A stretch of DNA of 64,000 bases, taken from Podarcis liolepis. Its lineage: Eukaryota. Below are positions 4,083 to 38,689 of this stretch, piece by piece. The translations under genes and the position numbers were made by a program. The stretch lies in assembly GCA_965112155.1 (NCBI GenBank), contig OZ218100.1; one strand, given 5' to 3'. Numbering within the stretch: position 1 is the stretch's first letter; every line of letters starts with the position of its first letter. The notes under the pieces are model-generated. The model searched no databases. It was given only the letters and a program-made list of their open reading frames with translations, and was not told where the DNA came from.

Positions 4083-4172
4083 CTGGAAAAACTGTACATT
4101 TTTAACAGGATCCTTGTGAAATAATTGAGTAGCACTGGCATACCTAGCAGGGACCGTATCAGCAAGATTATT
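4083..4172 (-). CDS. XDH: XDH exon 16 (NNLADTVPARYASATQLFHKDPVKNVQFFQ), FAD-Mo linker
   Basis: 90 nt; cag|...|gtgagt; SAT.LF.KDP linker motif. Confidence 0.94.
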
Positions 4173-4261
4173 CTGTAAAAACATATTTGAAATCCAGTGT
4201 AAGTCTACTCATATGCCTCTTGCATCTTATTTTTAAAAACAAACAAACCCAAAAACTTATG

Positions 4262-4461
4262 CAAAACAAAAAAATTCCTTCCAGTAGCACCTTAAAGACC
4301 AACTAAGTTAGTTCTTGGTATGAGCTTTCGTGTACAAGCACACTTCTTCAGATACACACGAAAGCTCATACCAAGAACTAACTTAGTTGGTCTTTAAGGT
4401 GCTACTGGAAGGAATTTTTTTGTTTTGACTATGGCAGACCAACACGGCTACCTATCTGTAA
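4262..4461. mobile_element. Penelope-like element terminal fragment with inverted pLTR duplication
   Basis: Perfect 72-bp inverted repeat (4262-4333 / 4356-4427); 13-bp TSD CCAAAAACTTATG (4249-4261 / 4462-4474); hammerhead motif. Confidence 0.8.
4318..4355 (-). ncRNA. Minimal type I hammerhead ribozyme motif (Penelope-associated)
   Basis: GTAT-CTGAAGA-A-GTGTG(CTTG)TACAC-GAA-AGCT-C-ATAC: stem I, core, stem II, palindromic stem III, CUC cleavage triplet. Confidence 0.75.
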
Positions 4462-4990
4462 CCAAAAACTTATGAACAGCTAATACTACCTATGCAACTT
4501 TCCCTCTTTGTGACTTGTGTAAAAAATCAAATCACCCAAAGTTCCAGTTTTGGTCCATCACTAACTGTTAGAGGAGTGATTTGAGTAAGGAGCAAGTCCC
4601 CTTTTCCTTTCCAGATTTCCCCCTTTCCCTCCTCCTCCTCTTTTAGTCTGTTATGACAACTGCCTACTATAGACCATGCCAGAAAGCTTCAAGGACCCAG
4701 AACCTACAGTGCAAAACACCTACCACAAAAGACATTTCCTCTGTTATGGAGATGGGCAACTTGTGGCTTTCCACGTATTGTTGGACTACCAGTCCCATCA
4801 TTCTTGTTAATTGGCTATGCCTGCTGGGGCTGATGGGAGTCCAACAATATTGAAAGAACCACAGGTACCCCATTCCAGCCTTCTCGTATGCCAATTTCTA
4901 AAGGAACCCCTAGAACTCAATAGAATCTGTCTCTACACACTATGGATTCCTGCTGAACCCTCAACCCAGCTAGAGGATGGAACCACTCAC

Positions 4991-5165
4991 GTTGCCATTG
5001 AGTTCCCTGCCTAATTTCTGAAGCACCGTGAGATAGAACTTGAAGAAGAAGCTGAGGACAAGGGTCCGTCGGAAGTCCACCATGCCACCCGGGGCTGAAG
5101 GGGACAGGTTCATCTCGCCAGCCAGCAGGCAACAGGCTTCCTGCAAGAGCTTTTCCTTCCACTCC
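4991..5165 (-). CDS. XDH: XDH exon 15 ([11 protein letters not shown]...[35 protein letters not shown])
   Basis: [18 protein letters not shown] motif; 175 nt. Confidence 0.97.
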
Positions 5166-24979: not shown

Positions 24980-25172
24980 GTTGTTGTTGTTTAGTCGTTT
25001 AGTCGTGTCCGACTCTTCGTGACCCCATGGACCAGAGCACGCCAGGCACTTCTGTCTTCCACTGCCTCCCGCAGTTTGGTCAGGCTCATGTTTGTAGCTT
25101 CGAGAACACTGGCCAACCATCTCGTCCTCTGTCGTCCCCTTCTCCTTGTGCCCTCCATCTTTCCCAACATCA
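24980..25172 (-). mobile_element. RTE-BovB 3' fragment
   Basis: (CAA)n tail; LMLGKMEGTRRRGRQRTRW; 10-bp TSD AGTGGGGCTT (24970-24979 / 25177-25186). Confidence 0.9.
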
Positions 25173-25664
25173 AGTAAGTGGGGCTTACTCCCACATGAAT
25201 GACGATATACTTGCAGCCCAAATGATTACATAAAGGAAGACCCAGCTGACATATTGTGGAGCTGCATGAGGCTTGAATGTAGTGCCAAGCAGCTACTTTG
25301 GCAAATATTTTTAAAATAAATTGCATTTTGTCCTAGATGACTATCGCTCAGAGATGGGGAACCTTCGACCCTCCAGAAACTGCTCAAGTACAACTCGCAT
25401 TATCTCTGACCATTGGCTACACTGGCTGGCGCTGATGGAAGTTGGCATCCGAGAATTTCTGGAGGGCTGCAGGTTCCCAATCATAGGCAAACTTTCTGCC
25501 ACCCATCAAAGGAACAGAGCAAACAAAGTTATCAAATACATTTGAAAATTTATGGGAGGAACTGGCTTTACACAATTACATTTTTCCATCCACTGAGAAT
25601 CTGTCCACCGTACTGCCGATACCTGCATTAGAAACCCATTCACCCATCTCATCACTTGCCATTC

Positions 25665-27233: not shown

Positions 27234-29456
27234 CTGGAAGACAAGAAACATGATTTTCTTAAGATGTGTGTTCATGCATGCGCTATAGTCAGTGAGTCAC
27301 CAGCATCAGAAAGTATTTTGGGAGGTCAGAAAATTCTGATGATTGTCAGTAAATCTCCCAAACCATCATTTTAAACAAGCAAACAAACAAAAGAGCTCTC
27401 TGCATTATGCTATGGTTATGGCATGCGTATTTTAGCACTGCAGAATTTATGCCTTTGGTTTTCTAGGCGATTGTATTATGGTGTTTGACTTGATGGATCT
27501 TTTCGTTGGAAAGGTTGTTTGTTATTTATTTGCTGCTTGATAGATTCTTGTTTTATGGGAATTGTGATTTTCAACCTGTTTAATTTTGTACATCGTCCGG
27601 AGAGCTATTCTTATTGGGTGACTGTAAACTAAGAAATCTTTAATAAAAATTATTTTTATTAAAAAAATAGAATAAATAATAGTATGACACTAACTATATT
27701 GTGGTATTTCTGTCCTATGCAGTGTTTTGTTTTGTTTTAGAAGCTCCAAGTGCCTTTCCCCCTTTCTATTTTGTTGAATCATGGAATTTTAAAACTGGAT
27801 GGGACCTTGAGTCCAGCCCCCCCTGGAATGCAGGAATATGCAGGGGATTGAACCTGCAACCTGAGCATTATCAGCACCACACTCTACTCGTTTTTATAAA
27901 AGTTTTGCTAACTACCATGTGTACTGTATTCTCTAGCGGAAAGGCAAAGGGAAGACCAGCATTGTCTTATCCATTAGCCAGTGAAAGAGCAGCCACTCCG
28001 GTGCTTGCTTTCCTCTTCCCTCCCCATTTGCTTTTCCTTTTGTGTGTGTACAAAATATACAGGGGCAGGTACCACTTGTCTTTCAAAATATGTATGGTGG
28101 TTGGAGGGCAGGTAATTTTGGGCACTTTATAAGTGAAATAAAATAAAATAGTAATTGATAATAATAGCAGTTAAGCTATGGGCACTTTCATGCATTGTGA
28201 TTTTTTGAGGGGATTTTGACTGACACCTCTCCATGGGTGCCATAGGAGGTACTGGCAAGCAAACTGATGCTCATGGATGCCCTGCTGCTGACCCCTGCAG
28301 TAAAAGCTTAAAATCTGCCTGACAACATCTGAAGTGCTTTTTTTTCCTTTGTTTACCTTGCCTCTCAGGTTCTAGATGGAACTTCAGATGCCTGTGGCAG
28401 CACAAACCTTTGTTCCTGCCGCTGCAACTATCACAAGCCCACAGGATCAGGACAGGACTTTTTGTCAGGATCAAAATGGCACAGTTTTCTTCCTACATGT
28501 AGAAGGCAGGCATGAGGAAGCACGCATATTTATTACTGCAAAGCAGACTTCGTTGCACCTCAAGTTGCCCTCCATTCCTACAGTCTTGGCTTAACACTTT
28601 TGGCCTTGCCAATTCCTCTCCCGGCCTTCAGCCAAATTAACCATTTCCTTGCAACAAAACAGCTCTTGTGCAATAGCTGCTTGCATATGACCGTTGCTGG
28701 CTTTCTCAGTAGGCTAATCCAAAGTACGTACCTACAAGCCATGTGTTGTACACATATGTATGGGTCATAGCACAGTGGTTTGGCAGGCGGTCCCAGATTT
28801 AATCCCCAGCTTTGCTAGGTATGGCTGCAACTTCCTCCAAAGCATACAGTCTTGGGGATTATGGCAGCCGGGGGGGGGGGGCTTTTTACTTTTAGAGCTC
28901 CATAAAATTATGCACGGGGTGGAGGAAGAGATGTTTTTCTCCCTCTCTCATAGTACATTCAGGGACATTCAGTGAAGCTGAATATTGAAAGAATCAGGAC
29001 GAACTAAGGACTTCTCCACATGGTTCGTAGTGTTACAGAAGTTGGGTGCCACCCCTCACTCTCTGCCGAGTGGTAGAAAGCTTCCAGGGTCTGTGCTCCT
29101 TTGGAGAATTGAAGACGCAGCAGAGACTGTCCTAGCTTTAAGAAATATGATTTATTCACCTTTTTACACCTTCAGTTTGCATGAAAGGAGTCCAGATCAT
29201 ACAGCATGGTCATCTCAAGCAAGGCTTGTTCCCCACAGAAGTGCAGCTCAGAATTCAATGGCATCTCCCCCAGCCAGCCTTCAGCCAGCCTGCCTAACCT
29301 GGAGTCCAGTCTTTATTCTCTCCCTTCTTCCCCACACACCTTGCTCAAAAGCAGTCTTTTCCTGCCACTTCTCTCACACACACCTCTTCACCATGGCAAC
29401 CTCAGTCTGCCCAGGCCCAAGATTCCTCTCACAGTGGCCATCAACACCTTTTGTCA

Positions 29457-29586
29457 TGTTGTTGTTGCTGTTTAGTTGTTTAGTCATGTCCGACTCTTCA
29501 TGACCCCATGGACCAGAACACGCCAGGCACTCCTGTCTTCCACTGCCTCCCGCAGTTTGGTCAAACTCATGTTAGTAGCTTCGAGG
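29457..29586 (-). mobile_element. RTE-BovB short 3' fragment
   Basis: LEATNMSLTKLREAVEDRSAW peptide and (CAA)n tail; similar to the 24980 and 39758 copies. Confidence 0.85.
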
Positions 29587-30944
29587 ATGCCTCTTATCCC
29601 AGCTGAGGCCCTGGCTTGGAAAGGAAGCTTAGCCTGTATTTTTCCGCTGACCTCCAATCTTCCCTTCAATACTCCAAATAATCAAAATCCTACCATTTAT
29701 TAATTTACAGGGTTTATAGCAATAGAACTCAATCCCACAGGAGGAAGGTATGGCCACCAACTTGTCTGGTTTTAAAATAGGATTAGACAAAAATCCATGA
29801 ATGGCAAAGCTGTCAGTGGCTAGTAGCCAAAATGGCGACATGCTCCATTAACTGCCAGAGGCAGTAAAGCCTCCAAATACCAATTGCTGGGTAGAGAGAG
29901 CCCTGTTGTGCTTTGCTCCTGCTTCCCACAGGCATCTGGTTGTCTACTGTGAGGAAAGGATGCTGGCCCAGATGGGCCTTTGGTCTGATCCCACAGGGTC
30001 TTCTTTGTGTTCTTCGGGGTGCTCAGTTACGTACAAGTTGTTGCTGTCCCAGTGCATTCTGAGAATTCTAGCAGGAAGAGAAGGTGTGCCAAGCAGCTTC
30101 TTAAGGAACACTGAAGGAAATTCCCCAATGAAGAGATTGATTTTCCAAACGTGTCAAGACAATAACCACTTGTCTCTCATTTGGTTTGACTTGCTCTACA
30201 ACTTCTTTTTTAATCCTTTCCTGCTATGCCCTGGTATTCCATGCCCTGCACACCTAACAATTTACCCAACCGTCGTAACTGTTGCAGTTTGCTAGGCAGG
30301 ATTCCTGACATCTCTTTCCTCTTTGGAAACAGAACCCCTTCTTTCCTTCCAACGCTTGGCCTCCATCAAGCCCTTCCATATTTTTTAATAAAATTACAAA
30401 TTATACTAAAACAGAAAGAATTGCATGTTATTGTTGTATATGCAAGCTGCTTTACAGGCATGATTAAAAGCAGCACTAGAGTATCCATCCACCTTCAGGG
30501 GGGGAAAGTATCCACTGCCTATTCTAGGACTTAATGTTTCAAGCTGTGCTACTGAAGAAACACATTTGGCCATTGAAAGTTCCATTTGCCTGCTGACTGT
30601 TGTGGCAAACTGAAGGTGGTGGTTTATCTAGGATAGCTTCCTGGGCCGTTTTTTCCCATCTTTCTGTATACAATGTATGTCTTTATGGTGCTTAGAAGCC
30701 TGTTCATTTTGATATTTGGCTGCATTAGGCTGTAAATTTGCAGCTAATCCGCCTCTCGACTGCATTCATTGTTATAGTTTGTCCCATTTTGTATATTTTA
30801 GTAAAAATTTGCAGTTTCTTTGTTCTGACTTCTCACATTGTCTTTTGAAACTGAAATCCCTTGGGAAAGGCGGAAAGTTTCACAAAACTGCCCTGCCAAC
30901 TTTAAGCTGCTGTCACCTGTTTTATCAACCTGGCAGTGGTGACA

Positions 30945-36869: not shown

Positions 36870-36911
36870 CTTCTTGCCATTGACAAAGAAGACCAGCTCA
36901 TCTGAAGCCAT
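36870..36911 (-). CDS. XDH: Xanthine dehydrogenase coding exon 1 (MASDELVFFVNGKK)
   Basis: ATG at 36911-36909; peptide matches the vertebrate XDH N-terminus (LVFFVNGKK); donor AAG|gtaggg; 42 nt. Confidence 0.95.
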
Positions 36912-38011: not shown

Positions 38012-38497
38012 TAATAATAATAATAAATAAAATTTTATTTGTATCCCGCCCTCCCCAGCCAAAGCCGGGCTCAGAGTGGCTAACAACAGTAAAAGTAATA
38101 CAGCGTTCTAAAATCAATACATTCTAAAATCAATTCAAAATCAAATTAATGGCAACCATTGGGCTAGAGTTCTGTGAGGATTACCAAGCTGTGCCTTGGC
38201 CAAAGGCCTGGTGGAACAGCTCCATCTTGCAGGCCCTGCGGAAAGATGTCAAGTCCCAGAGGGCCCTAGTCTCTTGTGACAGAGCGTTCCACCAGATTGG
38301 GGCCGAAAAAGCCCTGGCTCTGGTTGAAGCCAGCCTAACCTCCCTCTGGCCTAGGACCTCCAAGATGTTTTTGTTTGTAGACCTCTGTGGGACATACCAG
38401 GAGAGGAGGCCCCTTAGGTACAAGGGTCCTAGGCCGTATAGGGCTTTAAAGGTTAAAACCAGCACCTTAAACCTGATCCTGTACTCCACCAGGAGCC
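38012..38497 (-). mobile_element. L2 LINE 3' fragment
   Basis: RIRFKVLVLTFKALYGLGPLYL...RAFS...WNAL...SFRRACK peptide; (TTA)n tail. Confidence 0.88.
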
Positions 38498-38689
38498 AGA
38501 TTTCTGCTCTCATCCTGAAGCAAAGTTCTTAAGCCTAGGTACTATTTCTGGGTTAGTGGAGTCTGTAACGTGACGTGTATATAACCTGAAGCGTATGTAA
38601 CCCAAGGTGCCACTGTATTATCTAAATACTACCATTTATTACAGTAATTTCTACCATTCACTAACAGACTCTGGTACCCTGGATCTGTG

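Follow-up and report, generated by a model that had tools for sequence, protein, structure and literature searches.

The hammerhead motif in XDH intron 15 of Podarcis liolepis lies in a head-to-head Penelope-like insertion and is probably blocked by its own hairpin

Introduction

Insertions of endonuclease-bearing (EN+) Penelope-like elements (PLEs) are known to carry an inverted pLTR, a one-sided tail and a TATA/Inr-like motif (PMC3846280, PMC8557442). Within this group, a CX2-5CxxC zinc-finger linker between the reverse transcriptase (RT) and the endonuclease marks Neptune and Nematis (PMC8557442). For the Poseidon element of Anolis carolinensis (PAc), in vitro work describes RT starts at two internal sites bounding the tail, extension of both target strands and an unprocessed RNA template; the Poseidon hammerhead ribozyme (HHR) cuts only with protein and is dispensable for insertion, and RNA-seq revealed no ends at its cleavage site (Frangieh et al. 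2024, PMC11167929). Single minimal HHRs gave no cleavage in vitro and dimers little (PMC4209133), and a review sets out the dimer view of hammerhead cleavage (PMC6765202).

Here we describe an insertion in intron 15 of XDH, located in a 64,000-nucleotide stretch of Podarcis liolepis DNA (contig OZ218100.1 of assembly GCA_965112155.1; "the window"). The XDH insert is a member of the known EN+ PLE inverted-pLTR insertions, and its architecture is already published. As in the Adineta Pen2a_Av type, an inverted pLTR stands head to head with the direct one and overlaps it (PMC3846280, PMC8557442); as in EN+ PLE insertions generally, one arm has a 30-40 bp tail, the target-site duplication (TSD) is short, and the full pLTR has TATA-like and Inr-like motifs (PMC3846280, PMC8557442). 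Unlike Pen2a_Av, the units of the XDH insert are minimal stubs without an ORF, the TSD is 12-14 bp rather than 8-10 bp (PMC3846280), and the thousands of copies in the family permit end-point statistics. The motif shares with published minimal hammerheads a 4-bp helix I, an unpaired nucleotide between 9 and 10.1, G10.1-C11.1 and palindromic 15.2-16.2, as well as an occurrence in thousands of single truncated copies, the published ones being reported in reptiles; it differs in that the XDH copy has a G-U pair in stem II and is paired to its own antisense arm, its cleavage being a prediction. The family appears to resemble PAc Poseidon (PMC11167929) in starting RT at two internal positions on either side of the tail, in extending both target strands, in its unprocessed RNA template and in the lack of RNA-seq ends at the cleavage site, whereas it carries the Neptune/Nematis linker that Poseidon lacks; it differs from D. 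virilis Penelope, which has a TATA-less internal promoter (PMC2377424). Head-to-head stubs and a pile of 5' ends at the hammerhead edge are not described in the available part of PMC11167929, nor are inverted stubs addressed in that of a 2026 retrozyme preprint (10.64898/2026.07.22.740005). A literature search (subscription papers and supplements lay outside its scope) found no publication on the 5' pile at the hammerhead edge, and none combining Penelope, twin priming and GIY-YIG.

Results

Protein similarity identifies the host gene as XDH, not aldehyde oxidase: for the exon at 5165-4991, the match has E 1e-21 with xanthine dehydrogenase/oxidase versus 5e-12 with aldehyde oxidase. With the ATG exon near 36,900 taken as the first coding exon, 4172-4083 is the 16th. 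The features of the locus are as follows, with element coordinates counted from the first G of the hammerhead as 0.

4083..4172, minus strand: XDH coding exon 16, 30 codons (exon count)
4173..4990, minus strand: XDH intron 15, the host intron (donor and acceptor read)
4249..4261, no strand: left TSD copy, 13 bp, CCAAAAACTTATG (sequence; single copy in the empty-site contigs of X3, X6 and X8)
4262..4357, minus strand: tail-less pLTR stub of a putative Neptune-type PLE, element -2 to +93, sense with XDH (alignment to the parent copy)
4318..4355, minus strand: minimal type I hammerhead motif (sequence; 11,482 exact 33-mer matches)
4334..4334, minus strand: private C-to-U in stem II of the XDH copy (comparison with other loci)
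4355..4357, no strand: CAC, a 3-nt microhomology at the head-to-head junction (sequence; same junction 134 times in the genome)
4355..4461, plus strand: tailed pLTR stub, element +21 to +127 (alignment to the parent copy)
4428..4461, plus strand: 34-bp PLE tail, carried by a single arm (compare the tails in PMC3846280, PMC8557442 and PMC11167929)
4462..4474, no strand: right TSD copy, CCAAAAACTTATG (sequence; empty-site contigs)
4991..5165, minus strand: XDH coding exon 15 (protein match; exon count)

The preliminary description of this locus had reported a 200-bp insertion with a 13-bp TSD and perfect 72-bp arms, about 90 nt upstream of the exon 16 acceptor, and each of these points was borne out. 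The insert occupies 4262-4461, is flanked on both sides by the 13-bp duplication, and ends 89-90 nt above the acceptor. Its arms (4262-4333 and 4356-4427) are 72 nt each, 100% complementary and separated by a 22-nt spacer; the hairpin fold has z = -20.8, with none of 200 shuffles equally good. When four DNA runs were compared, three of them (X3, X6 and X8) each gave a single contig spanning 4248 to 4462, which joins these positions with one copy of the 13 bp and thus proves the duplication to be a TSD. X6 is another sample under the same species label, while X3 and X8 carry two related species labels. In X1 the contigs match the window flanks and break at both insert ends. Because X6 has the empty site, the insert is not fixed even within one species label; the X6 flanks differ from the window by about 1%, and X6 could be another lineage despite its label. 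The earlier statement that every XDH pre-mRNA carries the motif therefore holds for carriers and fails elsewhere (X3, X6, X8), and the fixation or conservation at the orthologous site expected of a functional intronic ribozyme switch was not seen in these three runs.

Other features of the surrounding sequence were also recorded. At 4224-4225, in the stretch that separates the insertion from the exon 16 acceptor, 18 bp found in X3, X6 and X8 are missing from the window haplotype, so that the intron 15 allele differs a second time close to the 3' splice site. An imperfect inverted repeat with 40-nt arms (73%) lies at 4752-4873 of the same intron; its repeat depth is high in each of the four DNA runs and the X8 contig contains it, which marks it as a second, older repeat insertion. 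Translated fragments at about 25,000-25,300, 29,400-29,700 and 38,200-38,500, in XDH introns and upstream, presumably resemble the C-termini of RTE/BovB-like and L2-like LINE proteins.

In copies of the family that reach further upstream, a GIY-YIG domain comes next, then a CX4CX2C linker and RT. In the parent copy, L067, a 532-aa open stretch scored 48.7 bits against RVT_1 (E 1e-12) and 24.9 bits against GIY-YIG, both above cut-off, and this RT and GIY-YIG lie upstream of the same pLTR as in the XDH insert; a PDB search with the parent ORF gave no match. The zinc-finger linker reads CNKPRCQLC in L062-L070. The family thus has the marks of an EN+ PLE, namely a C-terminal GIY-YIG after RT and a pLTR with an optional 30-40 bp tail and an inverted, 5'-truncated copy. 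Since RT, linker and GIY-YIG fit the definition in PMC8557442, we regard the parent as an endonuclease-bearing PLE of Neptune/Nematis type, and since Neptune is reported as widespread in vertebrates, a Neptune-type assignment, taken from the linker rather than from RT phylogeny, is preferred. The earlier reading of a young Penelope-like insertion is upheld. The three longest copies retrieved are all 5'-truncated. Full pLTRs have the TATA-like TATATAGA at -33 and the Inr-like TCAGT at -5..-1, which together predict an RNA start at -3/-2. Two long RT-containing copies, L119 and L120, stand head to head with a second unit, and because the L120 partner is a short stub beginning at the hammerhead edge, the same joining applies to long insertions. 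A short open frame with an ATG lies inside the tail at 4428-4461; by likeness to Adineta Pen2a (PMC3846280), this ATG may be the start of the element ORF.

The minus strand, which is the sense strand of XDH, reads from 4355 to 4318 as a minimal type I hammerhead, just as first described, with activity a prediction. It comprises a 4-bp stem I, CUGAAGA with an unpaired A, a 5-bp stem II, GAAA, a palindromic AGCU and a CUC triplet, with the predicted cut between 4322 and 4321; the CUGANGA and GAAA cores, an NUH site and complementarity in helices I and II are thus all present, helix III is lacking, and the isolated fold is -3.9 kcal/mol. The extra A of the core, singled out earlier, is real but is a family trait rather than a peculiarity of the XDH copy (genome matches; PMC4209133). 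Peculiar to this copy is the change at 4334, where the plus-strand letter is G in 29 other loci except for one C, and 99% G in the DNA runs; stem II of the XDH copy carries a G-U pair. The Infernal search that had been proposed as a check did not go in favor of the motif, returning no Rfam hammerhead family at E<=10 in either 1201 nt or the isolated 54 nt; what matched in the Rfam scans was limited to generic hairpins (miRNA-type) under gathering scores. An older, decayed family has the same hammerhead core and AGCU palindrome with a different, longer stem II. In 10 such loci (L127, L128, L131, L137, L138, L146-L148, L151 and L153), where the core was imposed by the search pattern, stem II pairs 5-7 bp in two and 1-3 bp in eight.

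The preliminary description had presented the hairpin and the ribozyme as real alternatives that could affect intron 15. Its premise, that the inverted arm pairs with the 3' half of the motif, is correct: the tailed stub (4355..4461), which has no CUGA core, is the source of the blocking arm at 4356-4427. The folds themselves, predicted at equilibrium by a model without proteins, Mg2+ or editing, gave the alternation no support. Forcing stems I and II costs +28.7 kcal/mol relative to the hairpin in three context lengths, which is far from the two folds of comparable energy expected of a functional switch, and the predicted pair probability of stem I in the arm-bearing context is about 1e-19. 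The blocking arm is the 5' arm and is transcribed ahead of the hammerhead; its predicted pairing is 0.64 once the cleavage nucleotide has been transcribed and rises to 0.998 with four more bases, the point at which stem I can first close, with stem II transiently possible (probability 0.67) when the transcript ends at +25. Upon removal of the arm, the probability of stem II is 0.016 for the XDH copy versus 0.85 for the family majority letters, owing to the C-to-U at 4334 and a loop variant, and stem I is disfavoured in both versions alike. A descriptor and BLAST scan of 114 kb covering XDH found no second sense-strand hammerhead. The only other hammerhead there, on the opposite strand, lies some 15 kb beyond the last exons found for XDH; it is part of L126, where units of the same family spanning +13..+126 and 0..+94 are inserted head to head, about 42.7 kb to the left of window position 1.

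We consider it extremely improbable that the hairpin alternates with an active hammerhead, dimeric or protein-assisted, whose cleavage alters intron 15 processing. Such a switch could draw on an intact core on the sense strand, the brief chance of stem II at +25, protein assistance of the kind reported for the Poseidon HHR (PMC11167929) and thousands of other copies as possible trans partners, and editing or helicases could open the blocking arm. It would nonetheless have to contend with the +28.7 kcal/mol penalty and an arm transcribed first, the private stem II change, the lack of a cis partner in 114 kb, the missing insert in another sample of the same label and in two relatives, and the inactivity of monomers and weakness of dimers in vitro (PMC4209133). 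We are confident that the insert is a pair of head-to-head short pLTR stubs, likely from one two-sided priming event, and that the hammerhead would be a hairpin-inactivated passenger. The antisense arm, +93 to +21, is transcribed before the motif and is predicted to pair with GAAA, stem III and the cleavage site, so the intron most likely contains a plain 72-73-bp helix, which would be spliced out with intron 15.

ADAR commonly acts on long perfect intronic duplexes, and this duplex could be an ADAR substrate, a candidate role. We judge it quite unlikely that the hairpin itself, rather than the ribozyme, mildly alters XDH splicing or is edited. The duplex is perfect and stands about 90 nt above the acceptor, but a branch-point-like CTTAC (an inferred assignment) about 28 nt above the acceptor lies well below the insert, and about half of many thousands of intronic copies are in the same situation. 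At the family level, A>G places rose to 21-35 in the RNA of a relative versus 8 in DNA contigs; this excess is not specific and leaves editing unsupported, because G>A rose similarly (9-12 versus 2).

To describe the family, we counted exact matches in the genome: 11,482 for the hammerhead 33-mer, 15,581 for a downstream 27-mer anchor and 134 for the XDH junction, with 0 for each control. From the 15,581 anchor matches, the first 100 were taken for the mapping of stub ends; they represent 69 sites in the first 4.5 Mb of contig C1 and one subfamily anchor. Their 5' ends fell as follows: 28 at or above -30, 6 at -29..-5, 40 at -4..+3 (16 of them at -2), 5 at +4..+11, 13 at +12..+25, none at +26..+31, 3 at +32..+37 and 5 at +38 or beyond. 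Thus 40 of 100 stubs begin at the 5' edge of the hammerhead, about 30 nt below the TATA-like box, and the rate per base at -4..+3 is about ten times that of neighbouring stretches. Genome-wide probe counts show a 3.3-fold drop at this edge (4,275 for -19..-2 and 14,292 for 0..+17, although subfamily differences could depress the former) and no drop across the cleavage site (17,340 for +27..+47 versus 17,393 for +34..+53). At the 3' end, 47 stubs are tailed, 51 are tail-less and 2 are shorter. Close head-to-head pairs occur at 27 of the 69 sites, and exactly one tail is present in 25 of these 27 (p 3e-6), one of the two exceptions being probably a mapping slip. The TSD is 9-14 bp in 24 of the 27 pairs (12-14 bp in 21 of those 24), and 9 of the 27 have the XDH geometry.

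The +88 allele was equal in both arms of 42 of 44 typed pairs, leaving 2 discordant where 17 were expected (the typing set comprised 52 pairs, of which 26 had been selected for their resemblance to the XDH copy and 26 came from the C1 loci, and 8 of the 52 were dropped); non-diagnostic variants, 1 shared and 23 private, were too few to inform. A whole hairpin unit of 200 bp that propagates itself as a non-autonomous element, copied entire from a master hairpin, would account for the 134 exact junctions and for the 97-99% identity of the 40 best matches across nearly the full length. We find it very unlikely: the 134 junctions amount to some 1% of the 15,581 anchor matches, junction positions vary continuously, the identical junction occurs on both +18/+88 subfamily backgrounds, and the tail is found on either arm (L041 versus L088).

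In the raw RNA reads of the relative (X21, X23, X24), placed on the parent pLTR, no pile of molecules was found at the hammerhead edge or at the cleavage site, ends to which ordinary RNA-seq is blind. The two strands were covered about equally, and the hammerhead edge had loose mixed-letter ends, as in DNA. Read-start piles upstream of the hammerhead occurred only at L050 1486 (13 molecules) and 1336 (8), which are probably single expressed loci.

Discussion

The 5'-edge pile, the level counts across the cleavage site and the one-tail rule fit two-sided priming on uncleaved sense RNA, in line with the two internal RT starts bounding the tail, extension of both strands and unprocessed RNA of Anolis Poseidon (PMC11167929). 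From the stub ends and the TATA-like and Inr-like motifs we infer that the 5' end of the element RNA is at -2/-3. We propose that the GIY-YIG domain would make a staggered cut about 12-13 bp wide, and that both free 3' ends would then prime RT on uncleaved sense RNA (one or two RNAs) of the same source element, one strand at the tail end (+127) and the other at an inner site (about +93). One cDNA would run off the RNA 5' end at -2 and the other would halt in stem II at +21, and the two would be joined via the CAC/GTG microhomology. Two other origins of the pile were rejected. A splice acceptor (TTTCAG upstream of -2) was set aside, as no stub has a constant upstream exon and no such joint is among those listed; RT stalling at stem I was rejected because the enzyme would then stop on the fold's 3' side.

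Another possible origin of the inverted arm is an antisense template that supports self-priming or fold-back, a model put forward for rotifer Penelope elements and discussed in PMC3846280. Palindromes at some junctions (a 14-bp stem II overlap in L071) and the near-identity of the arms are in keeping with this. Fold-back, however, predicts neither a sharp 5' pile at the sense TATA/Inr position in both arms and single stubs nor a one-tail rule matching the two sense-RNA start sites of RT (PMC11167929), and we regard it as rather unlikely; it bears on how the insert formed, not on the inertness of the ribozyme.

Returning to two-sided priming, we lean slightly toward reading the stubs as a fossil record of the PLE insertion cycle, in which the RNA would start at the 5' edge of the hammerhead, would never be copied in self-cleaved form, and would serve as template for RT primed by both strands of a single staggered cut, with the two strands necessarily starting at different internal sites. 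On this reading the role of the hammerhead would lie elsewhere in the cycle, or in RNA pairing for a dimeric enzyme, and not in forming the template's 5' end.

For XDH, the insertion is most likely of no consequence, being a repeat stub that is polymorphic and whose ribozyme is blocked. Were such motifs to cleave, host pre-mRNAs would contain self-cutting sites at thousands of intronic copies on the sense strand, a surprising outcome, and the evidence points away from this. The formation of inverted pLTRs in PLEs and the role of the hammerhead are open questions (PMC8557442, PMC11167929), on which our family statistics are of modest import. The counts do yield sharp predictions for the existing in vitro system: an RNA start at -3/-2, no cleaved template, and one tail per pair.
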